A model generated the notes under the pieces. The model was not told where the DNA came from. It did no database searches and saw nothing but the letters and a program-made list of their open reading frames with translations. This document shows, one piece after another, positions 1,113 to 64,000 of a stretch of 64,000 bases of DNA. How positions within the stretch are numbered: the first letter of the stretch is position 1; every line of letters begins with the position of its first letter. The translations under genes and the position numbers were made by a program. The stretch comes from Octopus vulgaris. Its lineage: Eukaryota. The stretch covers positions 96,286,001 through 96,350,000 of the forward strand of contig OX597814.1 of the NCBI GenBank assembly GCA_951406725.2, written 5' to 3'.

Positions 1113-1324
1113 ACTTAATCCAAATATGAACAAAGAGAAAACGCAACAACGCGAGGACGTGGCTCAAGTAGAGTGTTATTGGACGCCCAGGAAAGGAAAG
1201 AAAGAAGGAGGATTTAACGTTTCGAGCGGAGCTCTTCGTCAGAAACATAGAAAAAGGAAAGGCCCAAGGAAGGGAAGACGGAGAAAGAAAATCGCCAATG
1301 ATACACAAGCGGTCACATATTTAA

Positions 1325-1325
<1 letters not shown>
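1113..1325 (-). mobile_element. Penelope-like pseudo-LTR fragment carrying a hammerhead ribozyme
   Basis: Flanked by (TA)n; organisation resembles the 2851-3000 pLTR; HHR core at 1213-1245. Confidence 0.6.
1213..1245 (-). ncRNA. minimal type I hammerhead ribozyme
   Basis: Minus strand ttt-CTGACGA-a-gagc-tcc-gctc-GAAA-cgtt-aaa; canonical core but weak stem I. Confidence 0.65.
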
Positions 1326-1374
<49 letters not shown>

Positions 1375-1581
1375 CAATGATAAATATCAAAGTGAGTTAT
1401 ATACAGTAGCGGTAACACATCGTGACGTATTTTTGCCATTTCAATATGGCTAACCCCTAAGGGTAGATGCTACTGTAGTTTTTAGCCCCAGGAGGACACA
1501 CTCCTCCAGCTGGCCATAGACACACTATCTGTGTCCTGTCAGTATTTGCAAAGGGAAGTCATCCTTCCCGTCTTCAACTTA

Positions 1582-1638
1582 TGATACACACGGACTCGAG
1601 TTTCGAGGTATTGACCTCTCGTCAGCGTGTGACAATCA
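1582..1638 (-). ncRNA. type I hammerhead ribozyme, copy 1
   Basis: Reverse complement of the 1876-1932 motif. Confidence 0.9.
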
Positions 1639-1875
1639 TAGTTGTCGCCGAGAATTAGATTTCCTTCACAAATACTTATACTTTTTCCAGCGTCCACTGT
1701 CGCTGATATTGAAAAAGTGAAATCAAACAATGATAAATATCAAAGTGAGTTATATACAGTAGCGGTAACACATCGTGACGTATTTTTGCCATTTCACTTT
1801 TTCAATATCAGCGACAGTGGACGCTGGAAAAAGTATAAGTATTTGTGAAGGAAATCTAATTCTCGGCGACAACTA

Positions 1876-1932
1876 TGATTGTCACACGCTGACGAGAGGT
1901 CAATACCTCGAAACTCGAGTCCGTGTGTATCA
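1876..1932 (+). ncRNA. type I hammerhead ribozyme, copy 2
   Basis: cacacg-CTGACGA-gaggt-caat-acctc-GAAA-ctcgag-TC|cgtgtg; stems I, II and III all pair; predicted GUC cleavage after 1921. Confidence 0.92.
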
Positions 1933-2228
1933 TAAGTTGAAGACGGGAAGGATGACTTCCCTTTGCAAATACTGACAGGACACAGATAGTGTGTCTATGG
2001 CCAGCTGGAGGAGTGTGTCCTCCTGGGGCTAAAAACTACAGTAGCATCCACCCTTAGGGGTTAGCCATATTGAAATGGCAAAAATACGTCACGATGTGTT
2101 ACCGCTACTGTATATAACTCACTTTGATATTTATCATTGTTTGATTTCACTTTTTCAATATCAGCGACAGTGGACGCTGGAAAAAGTATAAGTATTTGTG
2201 AAGGAAATCTAATTCTCGGCGACAACTA

Positions 2229-2285
2229 TGATTGTCACACGCTGACGAGAGGTCAATACCTCGAAACTCGAGTCCGTGTGTATCA
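2229..2285 (+). ncRNA. type I hammerhead ribozyme, copy 3
   Basis: Identical motif; predicted cleavage after 2274, 353 nt downstream of copy 2. Confidence 0.92.
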
Positions 2286-2444
2286 TAAGTTGAAGACGGG
2301 AAGGATGACTTCCCTTTGCAAATACTGACAGGACACAGATAGTGTGTCTATGGCCAGCTGGAGGAGTGTGTCCTCCTGGGGCTAAAAACTACAGTAGCAT
2401 CCACCCTTAGGGGTTAGCCATATTGAAATGGCAAAAATACGTCA

Positions 2445-2475
<31 letters not shown>

Positions 2476-2483
<8 letters not shown>

Positions 2484-2839: not shown

Positions 2840-2850
2840 TATATATATAA

Positions 2851-3380
2851 AGGGAAGGTTTACGAAAATAAACAAAAGACGAAGGCAGGTGGTGTACAAA
2901 CAAACAAATGTATTAGTATAGCGCTCAGGAATAGAAATAGAAAGTCTTTTACGTTTCGAGCCTACGCTCTTCGACAGAAAGATACACAGAAAAAAACAAG
3001 GAGAGAAAAAAATACGTGTAGGAGCTAACGATCTATCATGGCGTCCTGACTTCGGACAGTGGTCAGACGCGAGAGGGACAGTAAGGGAGATAACAGGGTC
3101 AAGTGACTTCCAATACGAAGGTGCTCCCAACACAAAGGTGCGTGTGTGTATAAGAGAGTATGTATGTGCATGTGAAATAGGGCTGGTGGTCTGGACGTGT
3201 GTGTGTATGTATGTGCGGGTGTGGAGATGTGGGGATGGGTGTGTTGGTGGTGTGTTGTGATTTGATGTGTAATGTTGTATGGTGTAGTGTAGTGTGGTAT
3301 GATGTTGTGGGGAGGTGGGGGAGGCGAGAGTGGGGAAAGTACAGGTGGGGTGTGGGTTCGGCTGGGGGAGGGGATATGGG
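2851..3380 (-). mobile_element. 3' end/pseudo-LTR of a related Penelope-like subfamily
   Basis: Diverged reverse-complement similarity to 7510-8190; HHR-like motif at 2945-2982. Confidence 0.75.
2945..2982 (-). ncRNA. minimal hammerhead-like motif, CUGUCGA core variant
   Basis: tcttt-CTGTCGA-a-gagc-gtag-gctc-GAAA-cgta-aaaga. Confidence 0.65.
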
Positions 3381-3483
<103 letters not shown>

Positions 3484-3722
3484 GAAGGTTTGGAGATGAT
3501 GTACAGGTATTATATATTAGAAGAAATGAGGTAATCAGAAGATCGGATGGTTCATATTTATAGATATTTATTTATATATTACATTTTTTACATATATATA
3601 TCATATCATTCAGATCATATCATTCAGATTATTAGCGCTTTCTTCCATTCCAGTGGGGTTTTCAAATCAAATTAATTCCTTTGTGGGGAATTTGATCATT
3701 TTATAGAGTTTCTCTCTGTGTA

Positions 3723-3760
3723 TCTTTCTGTTGAAGAGCGTAGGCTCGAAACGTTAAAGA
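3723..3760 (+). ncRNA. minimal hammerhead-like motif in 5' pLTR, CUGUUGA core
   Basis: tcttt-CTGTTGA-a-gagc-gtag-gctc-GAAA-cgtt-aaaga. Confidence 0.65.
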
Positions 3761-4481
3761 CTTGTTTTATTTATATTTCCTGAGCGCCATACTAATACAA
3801 TTGCTCGTTTGTTTTCCACCTGCCTTCGTCTTTTGTCTATTTTCATAAAGCTTCCCGTTATATATTATGCGCTCACGTGGTCTCACTTTCATCCTATATT
3901 CTACCAATACCACTATCAACACTTACCTCTACCTTGGATTTTCTTTACCTCTTGGATACTTACCATTGGCTGCACCTCTCTTTCGCGGATCAAAGTGACT
4001 TTGCATTGATGTGAAATCCTTAAAAAATATACCACGACGTCTACACATTTCTCACCTTGAACTTTCAACCTTGAACTTGTTCGCATAAACTGTCCCGTTT
4101 GTTGTATTTTTATTTTCTCTTATATTACCACTTTTTTTACATTCATTTCATGCTTTCCACATTTTCCTGCATTTTTGTTCTCCTTTCCGTCTTTCTTCCC
4201 TCTCTGGATGTCCATACTCCGTTTCCTCTGCCTGCACCCCCTTTTTTGCCTCCCCCTCTCTCTGCTTCCCTTCTTTCTTTCCCTTTTCCGTTTGCCCCAA
4301 CTTTTCTGCCCCTATCGCTTACTTATCTTAGTTTTTTCATACGATTATTATTTTTTTGTTTTTTTGAACGTTTGTTTTTCCCCTTTTTTCGCTATCCTTT
4401 TTTTTCTATGTTTTTCATACGATAATTTTTGTTTTTTGTTTTTTTTTGTTTTTTCGAAGGTTTTTTTTCCGCTATCCCATC

Positions 4482-7400
4482 ATGCCGGATCCTAGGTCCT
4501 ACCTCCTCACCCTCCATCACCGTTTGAAGGATCATCTCCGTTCGCTTCCTGTATATTGCCTTCAGCCGTCCGTTAATCTCTCTCTACTTCTTTTTAAAAA
4601 AACCCGCTTCTCTAGCCATGTCTCTTTCCTAAGCCGCTGCCTACATCACCGACTCATCCCTAAAGGTTTCCGCCTCCACTTCCACCCTGCTCTCCACTCG
4701 GATTCTTCCATCTTACCCATACTCCGCACCACATCTTACCGCCTTATGCGGGCCACCATTCGCTCCAATCTCTCCAAACTACATGCCATCAACCGCCTTC
4801 TTCCTCCTGCTTTCTCCACCTTCTTCTCCTCTCTGCCGCCTCTCTATGCTCCAAACACGCTACGCTTCATTATCCATTTGAATCAACTCTTCCATCAATT
4901 TCTTTCTGATACCAAACTTCGTAAACTCCAATCACTCTTCCATTCCACCCTACCCGACGCCACTACCCCAACTCCTCCACCACCCTTCTCCCCTCCCGAT
5001 AGGCTCCATCCACCCACACCTAACCCCACTGCCCCTCCCTACAACCCCTTCTCCTCTCCCGATAGGCTCCATCCACCTACACCTAACCCTACTGCCCCGC
5101 CCAACCACCCCCACACACCTCCCCAATCCCTCCCCCTCAGACCTCCACGAGACCTACCACCCCTCCTACTTCTATTCCACCCACCCCTTCTCCACTTCCG
5201 TCTGTTGTTACCATTCCCCCCGATCTTCCCCTCTCTGCGGCTGAACGCTCCGTCCTTGGTAGGGGTCTGCAATTCATCCCCCTCACTCCATCCTGTAAGG
5301 AATTCCAGACGCGAGTTGATGTCCACAGCTTTGTGCGCCGTGTACGGTTGGGTGCGCGTTACCACGACTCGCCACCCACACCCAACGAAGAGGACTGCTT
5401 CACTGGCCTGGGCCGCCGACCATCCCCGTGGACGCCTGCCCCTGGCCAGATCCTAGCAGTGGATCTTTTCGCGGGCGCTTGTCAGCGTGCATTGGAGCGG
5501 TTCAACTTCTCCAGGCGCCAACGCCGCCTCAACATCTCCCCGGCTGAGCTCTTGGCTCTTCGTTCCCTCCAACGGCGCGCTGACATTATCATCAAACCGG
5601 CTGACAAGGGTGGAGCTGTAGTGGTGTGGCGCGCGGACCTCTATAGGGCCGAGGCTTTCCGCCAACTCAATGACACCTCCTTCTATTCCCCTCTGCCCTC
5701 TAACCCCACATGTAGCTACCAACAGACGGTATCCTCTACTGTCCACGACCTCATCTCGTCCTCCCGTCTCCCCCGCACCGCATCCAACCTAATTGTGCGA
5801 ACCCCACGTACCCCCATCATTTACTTCCTCCCCAAAATCCACAAAACCAACAACCCTGGCCGCCCCATCGTCTCCGCCTGTAACTGCCCCGCGGAGCTCA
5901 TCTCTAAATACCTCGACCGTGTCCTTGCCCCCTAGTGGCATCTCTTCCCTCCCACATCCACGATACCAACCATGCTCTCCGGCTTTTCAACTCTTTCTCC
6001 TTTCCTCCCGGCTCCTCCAAAATCCGTTTTACTATGGACATCCAAAGCCTCTATACTGTTATCCCTCACCACGAAGGACTGCAGGCCCTTCGACACTTTC
6101 TTGACCTCCGCTCTAACCCTGTACCTGACACCTCCACACTCATTCGTCTGGCCGAACTTGTCCTTACTCTGAACTGCTTCTCGTTCGCGGGCGAGTTCTA
6201 CCATCAGATCTCGGGAGTGGCCATGGGAACGCGAATGGGCCCCAACTATGCGAACCTGTTCGTTGGCTATGTTGAGGCCCAAATATTCTCTAATTTCACT
6301 GGTCCCACTCCTGAACTATATGGTCGTTACATTGACGACATTATCGGTGCCACCTCACTCTCCCGCGAACATCTAGATTCCTTCCTCTCTTTCGTCCAAT
6401 CTTTCCATCCAGCCCTCCACTTCACTTCCACTATCTCCAACACCTCTGTCTCCTTCCTCGACATTTCGGTTAGCATTCTTCACTCCACTCTTACCACCTC
6501 CATTCACTACAAACACACAGACTCACACTCATACCTCAACTTCTCTTCCTCCCACCCAGAACACACCAAGCTTTCCATCCCCTATTCCCAATTCCTCCCT
6601 TTTCCCCTCACTTACCACCCCACGACCCTACGTCTCCAACGCACCATTCTTCGAGCTTTCCGTCATCTCCAGTCCGACCCGTCCACTTCACACCTCTTCC
6701 CTAACCGACCCCTCCCCTCTTTCAAACGAGCCCACAACCTTCGAGACCTTTTGGTCCATAGCTCCTTCCCTGACCCTACCTCCCAACCCGGCTCGTTCCC
6801 CTGCTCCCGCCCACGTTGCCGCACTTGCCCTTACCTCTCCAACACCACCCGCCTCACTAGCACCCACCATCGACCCTATCCCATCATCCACTCCTTCACC
6901 TGCACCTCCAGCAATATTATCTATTGCATCTCTTGCTCTCTCTGCAATTCCTTGTACATCGGACAAACGGGACGCCGCTTGGCTGACCGGTTCGCGGAAC
7001 ACCTTCGTGACATCCACCTTGCGAACGACACACCGGTCTCACGCCATTTCCGCTCCACCGGTCACTCCTTGCAACACCTATCTGTGTTCGGTTTGTCCTT
7101 ACACAGAGGCCATCCGGATTCCCGTTTGCGCCGTGAACAGGAATTAATCTTCTCTCTTCGCTCTTATACGCCATTTGGTCTCAACTCTCCCCCTCCTCAT
7201 CTAACCCCTCTCTCCCCCTCCTCACCTATCCTTTCCCCCCGACCCCTACTTCTTCAGTCCTTCATCCTTTCACTCCTACTCCCCTTCTCTTCTTCCCTCT
7301 TTCTCCCTCCCTCCTTCCCTCTTCCCCTTCCCTCTGCTCCCTCACTCCCTCACTCCCCTTCTCTCTCCCCCTCTCTCTCCCCCTCTCCCTCTTTCCTCCT

Positions 7401-7578
7401 TCCTCCCATTCCTTCTCCCCCTCCTCTCTCTCCCCCTCCTCTCCTCTTCCCCCTCTCATCCCCCTCTTCTTCCCCTCCCCTTCTCCCCCCTCTTCCCCCC
7501 CTCTTCTCCTCACTACACCACACGACTTTACACATCACATCATATATGATGTGCCATGCTAATACATACACCAACTAA
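4482..7578 (+). pseudogene. Penelope-like reverse transcriptase / GIY-YIG endonuclease polyprotein, frameshifted
   Basis: Motifs LSAAERSVLGRGLQFIP, IKPADKGGAVVV, PKIHK..PGRPIVS, MDIQSLYT, GVAMGTRMGPNYANLF, RYIDDI, Cys linker CSRPRCRTC, IIYCISC..LYIGQTGRRLADRFAEH and GLN; frameshifts near 5100-5200 and 5930. Confidence 0.93.
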
Positions 7579-7872
7579 TACATACTAATACATACTAATA
7601 CATACACCAACCCTATACATACACACGTCCAGACCCCTCATACGCACTTATACTCTCTCATACACACACACACACACTTATACATACTAATACGTACTAA
7701 TACATACTAATACATACTAATACATACACCAACCCCATACATACGCACGTCCAGACCAATCCTACGCACTAATACTCTCTCATACACACACACACACACA
7801 CGCACACCCTTATACATACTAATACATACACCAACCCTATACATACACACGTCCAGACCCCTCCTACGCACT
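7560..7872 (+). repeat. tandem repeats in PLE 3' UTR (CATACTAATA units and about 3 longer imperfect units)
   Basis: Recurrent CATACACCAACCC..CACGTCCAGACC blocks. Confidence 0.7.
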
Positions 7873-8055
7873 ATTAGCTGGTCCTTCAACCCTATTATCA
7901 ACCCTATTATCAACCCTATTATCTCCCCTTATTTCGCTCTCGCGTCTCATGTTTGATCTTTGACCTCTGGCCGAAATCAGATCGCCATGTTGATTCGTTA
8001 GCTACTGCACGCATATTTTTCTCTCCTTCTTTCTGTGTTTTTTTCTCTCTGTGTA

Positions 8056-8093
8056 TCTTTCTGTTGAAGAGCGTATGCTCGAAACGTTAAAGA
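8056..8093 (+). ncRNA. minimal hammerhead-like motif in 3' pLTR, CUGUUGA core
   Basis: tcttt-CTGTTGA-a-gagc-gtat-gctc-GAAA-cgtt-aaaga. Confidence 0.65.
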
Positions 8094-8190
8094 CTTGTTT
8101 TATTTATATTTCCTGAGCGCCATACTAATACAATTGTTCGTTTGTTTTCCACCTGCCTTCGTCTTTTGTCTATTTTCATAAAGCTTCCCG

Positions 8191-8243
<53 letters not shown>

Positions 8244-15350: not shown

Positions 15351-15488
15351 ATTAACATCACTATTGTGTTCTAATATTCTGTTAGTAAAATTTCACTGAT
15401 ACTTATAAACATATGTAGAAAATTAAAAGAATGTTCGTAAAAATAACAACCATGATAAATTATATATTATTTTACCTTATATTTCCCA

Positions 15489-15883
15489 CTAGCAGTATCG
15501 CCCGGCGTTGCTCGGGTTTGTAAGGGAAATAACTATATAAGCATTTTTAGAGAGTTATATAAAAAAAATAGCAAAAATATGCATTAAAAATGGAATAAAA
15601 AATGATGGTAATTTTTTTTAATCGTTGACTCATCGTAGACATTTTTAGAGAGTTACTTCCCTTATATAATAGCGAAAAAATGCATTAAAATGGAAAAAAT
15701 GATGGTAAATTTAAAAAAAAATCGTAGACGCATCGTAGACGCGCGCTAATACCCAGAAGGGCTCGATATGAATCACGACTATAATATACCCGGTTTTGGT
15801 TAAACTGCACCGCAAAATGTGGGAGTAGTTAGGAATCTAAATCGTAGGAGACAGACACATAACTTCACTTTTATATATAAAGA
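15489..15883 (-). mobile_element. non-autonomous Helitron
   Basis: 5' TC at 15883, 3' hairpin + CTAG at 15489, inserted between A and T. Confidence 0.85.
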
Positions 15884-16396
15884 TTTGTGAAACAACTAAA
15901 ACATTCGGTTGTGCAAATTGCTTGCACAGGAAACCTGCCCTGTGTGACGGTTTTTGCCGTTTTTGTGGATCTGTTTCAGCTTTTTTAGCGATTTCTGTTT
16001 TGGCGACTTCAAGCCATGAAGTCGTTGTTCTAAAAGAACGCTGGTCTCCTTGACAACGCTTTACGACGTTGATTTCCTTACACTCCCTTCCCCACAGCTT
16101 CACGAGGGAGGGAAGAAGGGGAGAAGCAACACAGGTGCAGGTGTGAGCATGGACGCCAACTCCGCCGCCATCGACACACGAAAAAATATGCGTTAAAATG
16201 GAAAAAAATTATGGTAAATTATTTTTAAAATCGTAGACTTATCGTAGACGCGCGCTAATACCCAGACGGGCTCGATATGAATCACGACTATAAGATACCC
16301 GAATTTGGTTAAACTGCACCGCAAAATGTGGGAGTAGTTAGGAATCTAAATCGTAGGAGACAGACACTCACACAACTTCACTTTTATATATATAGA
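15884..16396 (-). mobile_element. second Helitron 5' half abutting the first copy
   Basis: 16180-16396 duplicates 15675-15883 including the 5' TC; no CTAG end of its own. Confidence 0.7.
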
Positions 16397-22293: not shown

Positions 22294-23833
22294 CAGCTTT
22301 GTCCAAAAGTATTAAGCCACCTCAATGTTTTGGAGTTCTGCTATGTCAATGTTAATGAAACTCGTGCACATGATAGATTATGGTATATTTCACAATATAC
22401 ATTATTAGTTTTAATATCTGGTTGAACCTCCTTTAGCATCAATTACCACTTTTATACTGTACTGTACATATGTAACCAATTATGAGTAAGACCAACGTCC
22501 AAAATTAACTTATGTTTCCTTGATTATTTCAAAGTTTTATGCTAAAATACGTTGTAGATACAGTTAATAAACAGTAAAATGCCTAAAACAAGGGAGTTGA
22601 GTGAGTGTGAGCGAGGTCAAATCGTAGCTCATCATGAAAGATGGAATGTTTCAAAGGCAAATTGCTCAGAAGATGAAATGTTCTCGATGTGCGGTGCAAA
22701 CGATTCTCAAGCGCTTCAGAGAGACAAAGGATGTGAAGATTATACAAAGAACAGGTAGAAAAAAGGTTACGTCACCTCATAATGACAGATCCATCATCCA
22801 TCAGCCACCCAGAAACAGAAGAAAAACATCGTCGGAGGTCTGTGCAGACTTCAGCGAAGCAAGTACTCCACAAATATCAACCAGAACTGTTAGAAGAAGG
22901 CTTGTAGAGTACGGTCTGAAAGGCTGTAAAGCCAGGAAGAAGCCATGGGTTTCTGAAGCGAATATGGAAAAACGTCTTCAGTGGGCCAAAAATCACTCAA
23001 ATTGGACCAGTGATCAATAGTCGAAAGTCATATGGTCAGATGAAAGTAACTATGAGGTAAGATAGTACATGTATTCAATCAACATATAAACTTAAAGGTT
23101 TGTTGCCTAAATTATATACAAAAAAGTATCGAACATAAAGCTAATATTACTTTTCATATATTTACCCAGGTTTTCAGTACATCTGGTGCAACTTTCGTGC
23201 GACGCAGAGTTGGGGAAGCATTTAAGGCTGAATGTCTGGTACCAACCGTAAAACATAGGGGTGGTTCTATCATGGTGTGGGCTTTCATGTCTGCCACAGG
23301 ACCCGGAAAAATGTTTTTAAGTCAGGGAAGGATGAATTTAGCTACCTATGTTTTCTATGCTATCGGCTGTTTTAGAGCCATCAATTGCTAAATTGCATCC
23401 AGGAGTGTCAAAAAACTGTTATCTTTCAACAGGACAACGCTCCATGTCATACAGCAAAAAATACTCGTAAATGGTTTGAGACACAGGGCATTGTTCCCAT
23501 TGACTGGCCAGCTCAAAGTCCCGATCTAAATCCGATCGAACACTTATGGGGAACTCTTGGTGAAGCTATCAGGAAAACAACAATTAGAAATAAAGAGCAT
23601 TTGTACCAAGTGTTGAGAGGAGAATGGAGTAAAATTGCGCCCGGCACCTGCAAGAAACTAGTTGATTTAATGCTTAACCGAATAAAAGCGGTAACTGATG
23701 CTAAAGAAGAGTCAACTAGATATTAAAACTAATGTATGTTGTGAAATATACCATAATCTACCATGTGCACGAGTTTCATTGACACTGAGATAGCAGAACC
23801 TCAAAACATTGAGGTAGCTTTTGGCCAAGGCTA
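22294..23833 (+). mobile_element. Tc1 DNA transposon
   Basis: About 160-bp TIRs (22294-22455 and 23682-23833) starting CAG; TA TSD at 22292-22293 and 23834-23835. Confidence 0.93.
22579..23726 (+). pseudogene. Tc1 DD34E transposase, two exons (22579-23056, 23170-23726), disrupted
   Basis: MPKTRELS..HTH, WSDESNYE|VFSTSG, FQQDNAPCH..SPDLNPIEHLW with 34 residues between D and E; GT-AG intron 23057-23169; premature TAG at 23018 and frameshifts. Confidence 0.9.
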
Positions 23834-31157: not shown

Positions 31158-31314
31158 TGCACATATATTTACAGTCCTGAGATGTCTCTGATTAGATCTG
31201 TATTGGACTCTGTAAAATGACTGCGGACAAGCTGAAGTCCGAACCATGTTGAGAAGGTATATAACAAATATCTTTGTCTATGCTAAGCATTAATAGTAAA
31301 TAATTTATCTTATA

Positions 31315-31707
31315 CTAGCAGTATCGCCCGGCGTTGCTCGGGTTTGTAAGGGAAATAACTATATAAGCATTTTTAGAGATGTAAAGTATAATAGCCATCT
31401 CAATATGGCTAACCACAAAGTGGGGTGTTACTGTAGCTTTTTACGTTCTGAGATTTAATAATACATTTTTAGAGAGTTACTTCCCTTATATAATAGCAAA
31501 AAATGCATTAAAAATGGGAAAAATGATGGTAATTTAAAAAAAAAATCATATACTCATCGTAGACGCGCGCTAATACCCAGAAGGGCTCGATATGAATCAC
31601 GACTATAAGATACCCGCTTTTGGTTACACTACACCGCAAAATGTGGGAGTAGTTAGGAATCTAAATCGTAGGAGACAGACACACAACTTCACTTTTATAT
31701 AATAAGA
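31315..31707 (-). mobile_element. non-autonomous Helitron with an internal insert
   Basis: 5' TC at 31707, hairpin + CTAG at 31315, A|T target; same family as 15489-15883. Confidence 0.85.
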
Positions 31708-31953
31708 TTTTTAGAGCAAGAGTGATAATTCACATGACAAATTCGGAGAGTTACGTAGCTTGGAATGAGAAGTGATAAAAAGAATTATCTAGATCAGGAT
31801 AAAAAAAGAAAGGAAAGACGGAGGGGGAAAAAAACCCAAGAAAAATTAAAGGAAGAAGAACGCAAAGGAAGACAAGTAGAGGCGAAAACGGAAATGACAG
31901 AGAAGAGAAAGGGAAAAAGACGGAGAAATAAGGAAAAGAGAAAAAGGTAAAGC

Positions 31954-57908: not shown

Positions 57909-58310
57909 AAGGCGGCGGGCTGGCAGAAACTTTAGCAAGCCGGGCGAAATGCGTAGCCGTATTTCGTCTGCCGTTACGTTCTGAGTTCAAATTCCGCAGA
58001 GGTCGACTTTGCCTTTCATCCTTTCGGGGTTGATTAAATAAGTACCAGTTACGCACTGGGGTCGATATAATCGACTTAATCCATTTGTCTGTCCTTGTTT
58101 GTCCTCTCTGTGTTTAGCCCCTTGTGGGTAGTAAAGAAATAGGTATTTCGTCTGCCGCTACGTTCTGAGTTCAAGTTCTGCTGAGACTGACTTTGCCTTT
58201 CATCCTTTCAGGATCGATGAAATAAGTACCTATCAAGAACTGGTGTCGTAATAATTGACTAGTCTCCCTCCCCCCAAATTTCAGGCATGGACCTGTAGTT
58301 GAAAGGATTT
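57909..58310 (+). mobile_element. dimeric family-1 SINE (tail-A copy fused to a head-less tail-B copy)
   Basis: Junction AAAGAAATAG|GTATTTCGTCTGCC near 58142. Confidence 0.8.
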
Positions 58311-58733
58311 TATAAAGACTAAATACAAAACTAAAATATTTAAGAAAGGCATACCGATGAACGTCGAAAATACCGATCTCGAAATGATAAAAGGCAAAGT
58401 CGACCTCGGCAGAATTTCAACTCGGAGCATAAAGACGGCACAGCAAAACATTCTGTATAACCAGAGTATCAGATAATAGTACAAAATTGTGTCGTAATAA
58501 TTGACTAGTCTCCCTCCCCCCAAATTTCAGGCATGGACCTGTAGTTGAAAGGATTTTATAAAGACTAAATACAAAACTAAAATATTTAAGAAAATACCGA
58601 TGAACGTCGAAAATGCCGATCTCGAAATGATAAAAGGCGAAGTCGACCTCGGCAGAATTTCAACTCGGAGCATAAAGACGGCACAGCAAAACATTCTGTA
58701 TAACCAGAGTATCAGATAATAGTACAAAATTGT
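58243..58733. repeat. recent tandem duplication, 246-bp unit x2
   Basis: 58243-58488 versus 58489-58733 near-identical. Confidence 0.92.
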
Positions 58734-61819: not shown

Positions 61820-64000
61820 TATGCTTGACTTTTGCTTTGTATTTGTACAAGTTGGCTCCAAGTATCACCCAGAGACCTCAAGAGACAACAAGTTAGAAGT
61901 TCATGTTGGTGTTATGCCTAGGGTGTCATATATTTGGTTTTGCACATAGTATTGTTCTAGAGAATGTTTAAGAGAACATGAGAAAATTATGAGTTTGTTT
62001 TAAAACTTTTACGTAGTATTTTACGTAGGATATGGGCAGTTCCTATGAGCACTATCCTTTGAATTTCTGCCATTTTTGGGTTTCTTGGTATCTGAGGTAG
62101 GTAGCAATCATTCCTAGGGCACCTATGACAACAGGTATTGTTTTTGTCTTGAGGCTCCACATTTTACCAATTTCTATTTCAAGATCTTTATACTTGCTCA
62201 GTTTTTGGTAGGTTTTGACAGATACATTTATGGCGATTAGGACAGTCATATCAACGAGGAGGCATGGTTTTTGTCCGAAGTCTTTTAATATTATGTCTGG
62301 CCTATTCGTATCTATCTTTCTGTCAGTTTCAATGGCGAAGTTCCAGAGGAGTGGGATGTAATCATTTTCAAGTATCGGAGGTGGTTTGTATTCCCACCAG
62401 TTTTAATCATGGGCAGGTCCAGGTTTTTGCAAATTACCCAGTGAATATATTGTACTGCTCTGTCATGCCTGTTGAGATACTGTGTAGGCGCAAGATGACT
62501 GCACTTGGAGACAACATGATCGATGGTTTCATTTTGTTGTTGACATACACATGTTGGGCTACTGACGTTCTTTAATATGTTGGCCTTGTAGATCCTTGTA
62601 GGTAGGCATTGATCTTGGGCTGCTATGATAAACCCTTCTGTTTCTGATTTTAAGCCAGAAGACACTAACCATTGATTGGTAAGGGCATTGTCAACATCGG
62701 CACTATTAGCTCTCATTGGACATTTGCTATTGAGAGGTTTTTCTTGCCATTTGTCAGTAAGCAGCAGTTTTAGCACGGGTTTTCATACGCTTAGCTTTTT
62801 CTGTGCTTCTTTCTAGTACGTCTAATTCTGGAATTTGTTGAATTCATTTAGATAATATTTGCTTGTTTTATTACTGAGAATGATTTTTTCTTGTTTTCGT
62901 GTTTTAAGGCAAGTTTTAACATCCATTCATCAGAGTTTTTGAGGTAGGTTTCTAGGCCAATTGTGAAAATCTTCATTGTTAATTCCAGTTGTAAAAGTTC
63001 ACGGCCAACTTCTTTTCTTGGCAGGTAAAGTCGCTCTATATCTGCCTTAGGGTTGTGCATTCTGTGCATTGTCAACAACTTTTGTACTTTTCTGTCAAGA
63101 TTTCATATTTCAATAATTGACCAGTTAATGATATTGAAACTGTAAGTCACGACTGGTATGGCTAAAGTATTGATTGCTTCGATCCTGTTTCTTGCATTCA
63201 GCTCTGTCTTGAGTATTGTCCTTACTTTGCGATATCATTCTTTTCTGATCTGTTCCCTCATCACTGAATGTTTGATTCCTTCCCTTTCAAATACCCCTAG
63301 GTATTTGTAGCTCACCGCTGGATCTAATTCCTTTATCACATTCTGCTGGTCAAGATTAACATTGGATGTTTCTGTCATTTTTCCTCTGATAAAGATAGCT
63401 TCTGTATATTTGTCGAGGCCAAATTTCACCCTGCTCTGATCGCTGAATTGTTTAACAATCGCTAGTAAACCCTGTAGTTGTTGGTCAGTTTTTCCAAAGA
63501 GCTTTAAATCATCCGTGTAAATGAGATAATTTATATTTTTATCAAATATTTTATAACCGTACTGAGCAATTTTGAGAGAGGTATGAAGGCTAGATAAAAG
63601 AGACGAGGTGATAGGGAGTCAATCTGGAAAATGCCATATGAAATTTTTACATCTCTCACATTAAGAGATTCATTGTCATTGTTCAAAGTCAGTGTGGTTC
63701 TCCATGATCTCATACTTACAGACAAGAAGTTTCGCAGTGTAGGTGCTATTTTATGAATTTTCAGACATTTCTTAATCTAGCTATGTGGCAGACTATCAAA
63801 GGCATTTTTTAGTCCATCCAGGCTATCGACAAGTTCTTATGTTGCTTGTGACAATTTTCCAAGATGATCTTATTAAAGAGTAGCTGATCTTTACAACCAT
63901 AGGATCCACATTTACATCCTTTTTGCTCATTAGAGAAGATGCCACTTTCTATTAAAAAAAAAAACTATAGGAATTTTCAGTCAAGGCAGATGTTAGCATT
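61820..64000 (-). mobile_element. R4/Dong-clade LINE 3' portion (runs off the window end)
   Basis: IFQIDSLSP, FGLDKY, YKYLG, ETEGFIIAAQDQ, ETIDHVVSKC, NRHD, KYKDLEIE, PVVIGALG; (TAA)n tail at 61750-61820. Confidence 0.92.

Follow-up and report, generated by a model that had tools for sequence, protein, structure and literature searches.

Near the beginning of the window analysed here (the whole stretch of 64,000 nucleotides of Octopus vulgaris DNA, positions 96,286,001 to 96,350,000 of contig OX597814.1), an element lies between two (TA)n tracts and consists of an inverted arm and a sense arm joined head to head (Table 1). Both arms are built from a repeat unit of 353 nt, numbered so that unit position 1 is window position 1791. 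The sense arm is 100% periodic with 0 mismatches to the unit, and the inverted arm shows 1 mismatch to its reverse complement. The presence of this inverted two-arm structure in the assembled window is confirmed. Because the arms are arranged head to head, the 3' ends of both face the TA tracts; and because the insertion lies inside (TA)n, a target-site duplication is unreadable.

Table 1. Features of the inverted insertion and of the neighbouring Penelope-like element (PLE); positions are those of the window
Feature	Position	Strand	Remarks
Left (TA)n target tract	1317..1373		
Inverted arm	1373..1796	-	424 nt = 1.2 units (unit 281..353,1..351); 3' end outward at unit 350/351
One-sided extension	1373..1418	-	46 nt, unit 306-351; absent from right outer end; equivalent of the PLE 'tail'
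Sole arm-arm difference	1465		unit 259, C to T on sense strand; the corresponding place, 2049, is not among the listed family variants
Type I hammerhead, inverted arm	1587..1631	-	Rfam; predicted cut between 1593 and 1592
Junction microhomology	1791..1796		6 nt; unit 1-6 sense, unit 281-286 antisense
Sense arm	1791..2448	+	658 nt = 1.86 units (unit 1..353,1..305); 3' end outward at unit 303-305
Type I hammerhead, sense arm	1883..1927	+	Rfam; predicted cut after 1921
Second type I hammerhead, sense arm	2236..2280	+	Rfam; predicted cut after 2274
Right (TA)n target tract	2447..2483		
Near-full-length PLE	3709..8192	+	RT, CxxC-bearing linker, GIY-YIG; broken reading frames; ends in (TA)n

The original prediction, made from the letters of this DNA, had set the outer limits of the arms at 1374 and 2447. 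The arms stand, while the limits are less sharp than that, since 1373 and 2447-2448 fit the element and the TA tracts alike. The junction had been described as an overlap at ATTTCA (1791-1796) that occurs in both orientations of the unit, and this is borne out: ATTTCA and TGAAAT occur once each in the circular unit, one sense and one antisense occurrence. The single substitution reported between the arms corresponds to the mismatch at 1465, and both arms do cross the hammerhead cleavage site and exceed one unit, with a Hammerhead_1 match in each. Of the 124,609 inversion junctions that the unit allows, 0.26% have a microhomology of at least 6 nt (a chance of 0.0026). A second complementary register, of 9 nt (unit 10-18 with unit 277-285; window 1791-1808 and 2067-2076), lies beside the 6-nt junction that was used, and cDNAs may be especially prone to anneal to each other in this region.

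The unit is non-coding (42.5% GC; longest ATG ORF 38 aa), and the element, having no ORF above 38 aa, lacks the RT and GIY-YIG frame by which an autonomous PLE is recognized. Rfam Hammerhead_1 matches three copies of the ribozyme at 32.2 bits each (E 2e-5), which lies below the gathering score of 34, so that none is a gathering-level match. In the copy at 1883..1927, the inner part of stem I has 6 bp and is extended by another 10 bp, stem II has 5 bp, and stem III has 2 pairs and a loop that is part of an 8-nt palindrome; core and stems are intact. In the predicted structures, the active fold of the monomer is about 6 kcal/mol worse than its minimum fold, and the dimer fold pairs the palindromes of two copies. 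Dimer-dependent hammerheads have been described for animals (PMC4209133), and with a hammerhead of this type uncleaved multimers are plausible. From cut to cut, the monomer has a predicted folding energy of -122 kcal/mol (z = -7.7), a stability reached by 0 of 100 shuffled sequences. Rfam miRNA matches also appeared, far below their gathering scores, and are artefacts of the inverted repeat and of microsatellites.

These features place the element close to the metazoan non-LTR retrozymes; here and below, published systems are compared from the available parts of the papers cited. Those retrozymes likewise have a non-coding unit (the published criterion is 150-450 nt with GC <50%, against 353 nt here) with one type I hammerhead per unit (PMC7229834; bioRxiv 10.64898/2026.07.22.740005), and share with the octopus family the head-to-tail repeats, the high copy number, the strong fold and the presence of PLEs in the same genome. 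In contrast to the present insertion, the copies described in these two papers are tandem only. Judged from its sequence, the element joins the non-LTR retrozymes as a new member, with a ribozyme that is predicted to cleave itself.

How do other members of the family end? Public runs were searched with one unit plus the junction, a query of 32 words, and 24 runs are listed. Twenty of these 24, from 12 studies, hold 84-91% of the words, and none holds all 32; the best 10 of the 24 hold 29 of 32 words each, where about 2.4 words would be expected to be specific to the junction, although the missing words are not named. The shortfall fits an absence of the junction from the 24 runs. All listed holders are contigs, and none is on record as an RNA holder, which has no bearing on expression. 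Ten organism codes occur among the runs with 84-91% of the unit words (the aligned runs represent two of the codes), and this spread may reflect closely related organisms, mixed samples or recent horizontal transfer. Pattern scans of metagenome, viral and prokaryote collections gave 0 loci.

Four of the 24 runs (X3, X6, X8 and X10), all contig sets, which show presence only, were aligned onto the monomer at 1922-2274. X10 gave 3383 records and X3 gave 3396 records at >=90% identity, these being record counts rather than copy numbers. In X8, two contigs close the 353-nt repeat with 0 differences to the unit, and in X6 three of the eight listed pieces have 0 differences. The contigs without differences, together with some 3,400 records in each of X10 and X3, indicate that the unit is the dominant family sequence and that the insertion is young and belongs to a family with many copies. 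The head-to-tail joint, at which the alignment goes back 353 nt across the ribozyme cut, was present in 4 of 4 aligned runs. The four contig sets list no joint with a change of strand, neither the present one nor another, and so give no sign that inversions are common in the family; contigs drop rare paths, and inversions may still occur elsewhere. Some contigs pass from the unit into hammerhead-like sequences related to it, a sign that the same genome probably harbours several sister families of retrozymes.

Among the 15 loose-end rows listed out of 178, three continue into (TA)n, which follows window position 2092 (unit 302) in 16 records of X3 and 1 record of X6, and follows 2141 (unit 351) in 3 records of X3. 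The loose ends at unit 302 have the same TA register as the end of the right arm and are one base shorter, and unit 351 is the end of the left arm. Both outer ends of the insertion therefore match contig ends of other copies (unit ~302-305 and 350-351), whereas a random end would be expected within 3 nt of a given site in 2% of cases. Measured from the predicted ribozyme cut, the shared ends come 171-174 and 219-220 nt downstream, and neither coincides with it. The remaining listed rows run into diverged relatives, apart from one X6 record that leaves the unit at 2125 into other sequence, and the 6 loose-end rows listed for X10 contain no (TA)n end; not every copy, then, stops at the two sites. 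The original prediction had counted fixed linear ends in other copies as evidence against itself. Such ends are found in part, as 3' ends at unit 302 and 351, and are not found at the ribozyme cut.

The two outer ends look like two internal start sites of reverse transcription, some 46-49 nt apart, of the kind that lies behind the 'tail' of PLEs. A purified PLE protein from Anolis cleaves AT-rich DNA and extends both strands of the target (PMC11167929); it starts reverse transcription at two internal sites, the interval between which corresponds to the genomic tail, and hammerhead cleavage is unnecessary for the reaction (PMC11167929). An inverted 5'-truncated copy, a tail of 30-40 bp and targeting to (TA)n are standard features of PLEs (PMC8557442; PMC3846280). 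The octopus insertion has an inverted 5'-truncated copy at its 5' end, two alternative 3' ends, and (TA)n both on its two sides and behind other copies. Its tail of 46-49 nt is longer than the reported 30-40 bp, which counts against the comparison.

The likeness to endonuclease-bearing PLEs extends to the head-to-head placement of the inverted copy, the one-sidedness of the tail and the AT-rich or (TA)n target (PMC3846280; PMC8557442; PMC11167929), and further to a short overlap at the junction and a hammerhead about 170-220 nt upstream of the ends. The similarity to the inverted pLTRs of Penelope elements, to which the original prediction had drawn attention, thus holds for the inverted-head architecture. 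The differences are that the retrozyme insertion has no ORF, that both of its arms are longer than one repeat unit, that its tail measures 46-49 nt, and that its junction is an offset 6-nt microhomology without a palindrome, with arms that are adjacent in template coordinates. In a rotifer PLE example, the overlap between the arms is a palindrome, and the arms do not correspond to neighbouring pieces of the template (PMC3846280).

We consider it likely, at a probability of about 0.68, that the element is one very recent non-LTR retrozyme insertion, made in trans by a PLE through twin priming. The PLE endonuclease would cut both strands of the (TA)n tract. The bottom-strand end would then prime a cDNA at an internal start near unit 302-303, which runs for 658 nt, and the top-strand end would prime a second cDNA at unit 350-351, which runs for 424 nt, as the positions of the outer ends suggest. 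The 3' ends of the two cDNAs would anneal at 6 complementary bases, each templating the second strand of the other, and the product would carry its two pieces head to head, with a one-sided tail. The strands are arranged as this scheme expects: the left arm runs antisense from the left flank on the top strand, the right arm does so from the right flank on the bottom strand, and their 3' ends are complementary over 6 bases. Twin priming predicts annealing between cDNAs at microhomology (PMC2912911).

If the left arm is turned back and placed before the right arm, the two form a periodic stretch of 1084 nt, or 3.07 units, with 1 mismatch and with unit 352-353 (2 nt) missing; the gap between the arms could be up to ~9 nt, depending on how the common bases are assigned. 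Such adjacency has a probability of 0.048 by chance within 8 nt, and 3 of the 41 junctions with microhomology of at least 6 nt start no more than 10 nt away (5-7%, for a single locus). The 2-nt gap between the arms on the template speaks for a single linear RNA of 3 units or more, on which the first cDNA would stop where the second had been primed. Since both cDNAs cross ribozyme cut sites, the template would have been uncleaved or religated, whether it was circular or a linear multimer. Had it been a single circle, each polymerase would presumably have had to displace the product of the other. If the adjacency is a matter of chance, two separate RNAs, circular or linear, are possible.

A further parallel in the literature is the 5'-inverted L1 made by twin priming, where the inverted 5' segment is likewise template-adjacent to the direct segment and the junction carries microhomology (PMC2912911); in one twin-primed example made by L1, the adjacent fragments lie 12 nt apart (bioRxiv 10.1101/2024.12.14.628481). 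The retrozyme differs from L1 in having no poly(A), a tandem repeat as template and, as the likely enzyme, a PLE RT with GIY-YIG; moreover, both retrozyme primings apparently took place at fixed internal sites, with a target match of 1-2 nt.

Perhaps a single polymerase made both arms instead, passing more than one lap around a circle or along a multimer and then switching to an antisense template or folding back, with an endonuclease resolving the far end. Circular templates that give more-than-unit cDNA belong to the published retrozyme model (PMC7761336; PMC4209133), self-priming has been proposed for the inverted junctions of PLEs (PMC3846280), the unit folds strongly, and a 6-nt microhomology fits a switch as well as it fits annealing. 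However, copying back on its own cDNA would yield 378 of the 424 nt of the left arm and leave 46 nt unavailable; a second switch or an antisense RNA would be required. The junction is also no palindrome, with a shortest loop of 67 nt, whereas the published self-priming model rests on palindromic junctions (PMC3846280). A strand switch by one RT is also weakened because the left outer end coincides with an end common to other copies (2141, unit 351), and we regard this explanation as unlikely. The original prediction had envisaged a single integration event in which RT copied a circle more than once and then switched template or strand. The type of element and, most likely, the single event hold up, and the strand switch and the need for a circle are weakened: a circular template is not required, because the two arms continue one another in a single array of 3.07 units, which fits an uncleaved linear multimer at least as well.

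Could the inversion be an artefact of assembly or of a fold-back or chimeric read? The junction was found in none of the public contig sets (24 runs listed, 4 aligned), and tandem and inverted structures of PLEs are troublesome for assemblies (PMC8557442). A fold-back read, however, would mirror the right end and its flank, and the left arm has a different end that is shared with the family, an unrelated flank (the two flanks share nothing above 9 nt) and a private base; a misjoin between repeat copies would presumably need a long overlap rather than 6 nt. We regard an artefact as improbable. Slightly less probable still is a plain tandem insertion of 3.07 units in which DNA repair later turned round the first 424 nt. 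Such an event would explain the adjacency and the 2-nt loss directly, and microhomology is common in repair, but it requires one break exactly at the element boundary (there are no TA bases at the junction) and a second on an end that the family shares (a 2% chance), and the near identity of this copy with the dominant sequence of the family leaves little time for it.

The twin-priming reading of this locus also suggests a broader proposal, which we advance tentatively and at well under even odds: that animal retrozymes are integrated by PLE proteins via twin priming at two fixed internal starts of one uncleaved linear multimeric RNA, that RNA circles, though abundant, need not be the intermediate of transposition, and that the inverted head and the one-sided tail of PLEs are two results of the same double priming.

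Would the inverted structure matter to the host as RNA? A double-stranded RNA of about 350 bp from read-through transcription had been envisaged, and the sequence would allow such a duplex: the longest possible in a read-through RNA is 378 bp (1419-1796 with 2071-2448), and an alternative register gives 351 bp. The read-through itself fared less well, since no host gene was found in the window by a Pfam scan of 15 + 129 reading frames (the 129 being taken from the top 148 in a ranking of 301 filtered frames), in which short exons could be missed; the scan returned transposon domains and two weak matches on one low-complexity frame. The suggestion that the duplex is a substrate for ADAR or a source of siRNA is unsupported. 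Four A>G places occur in X6, which is RNA by guess, as they do in X10 and X3, and the comparison was made on contigs, which cannot show editing. A tRNA scan found 0 genes in the window, and a bacterial promoter scan was uninformative.

The PLE at 3709-8192 means that PLEs are present in the same genome as the retrozyme. Its direct terminal repeats (3709-3865 and 8042-8198) are 98.7% identical, with minimal hammerhead cores at 3728 and 8061. Of 5786 candidates compared with its RT-EN frame, 815 are related to it, and relatives occur in corals, snails, a sea urchin and sharks. The linker, as described in PMC8557442, makes it a candidate member of the Neptune clade. It has no match to the retrozyme unit and no visible likeness to its ends, and is at most a candidate partner. 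Two PLE-type 3' fragments on the minus strand (1112-1316 and 2843-3380, with hammerhead cores at 1242 and 2977) each end at a TA tract; together with the retrozyme and the PLE, four PLE-type insertions thus lie within 7 kb of TA tracts.

Other elements crowd the same region. The right TA tract is directly adjoined by an element at 2476-2840, which we take to be non-autonomous and Helitron-like; it has a 3' hairpin followed by CTAG, and its 3' end recurs at 15488 and 31311. Within the retrozyme, 57 nt at 2031-2087 (unit 241-297) are 81% identical to 31386-31441, inside a Helitron-like element at ~31304-31710, and the related copy at 15488-15886 apparently lacks this segment. One of the two elements may have captured the piece from the other. 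In 3 of the 4 aligned runs, summed depth also peaks at unit 241-297. Elsewhere in the window lie a Tc1/mariner-type remnant (22314-23820) with 142-nt inverted ends and matches to HTH_Tnp_Tc3_2 and DDE_3, a LINE-like remnant on the minus strand (62312-63618) with weak RVT_1 and zf-RVT matches, and a dispersed 230-nt repeat of 75-94% identity at 321-553 and about ten other places including 58243-58733, one copy of which stands beside a 243-nt tandem pair.

The architecture of the insertion is the known PLE one, since the inverted head and the tail are already known for PLEs. For retrozymes, a literature search found no account of inverted or tailed insertions, nor of twin priming in PLEs, although subscription papers and supplements could hold one. 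In the available text, 'inverted' occurs nowhere in PMC7229834 and in one reference title in bioRxiv 10.64898/2026.07.22.740005, where 'tail' has 0 occurrences. A 2020 review names PLEs as likely candidates for retrozyme mobilisation (PMC7761336). As far as the accessible parts of these papers go, Li, Clavereau and Pollet (2026) tie retrozymes to PLEs by co-occurrence, a shared ribozyme and pLTR phylogeny rather than by insertion ends (bioRxiv 10.64898/2026.07.22.740005), and Cervera and de la Pena (2020) likewise do not draw the link from insertion ends (PMC7229834). Insertion ends record the footprint of the enzyme directly, as co-occurrence and phylogeny do not.

The identity of the enzyme that moves retrozymes in animals and the origin of the inverted and tailed ends of PLEs are both described as open questions in the available literature (bioRxiv 10.64898/2026.07.22.740005; PMC8557442; PMC7761336). 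A single locus is a lead rather than proof, and this one is mechanistically informative. With a young, high-copy, non-coding family that has two fixed ends, both questions are testable in one long-read assembly, where copying from a circle and twin priming on a linear RNA would be expected to relate one arm to the other in different ways. If the twin-priming reading is true, the order of the template could be read from insertions of a retrozyme, which is a short perfect repeat, in a way that full PLEs would not allow.
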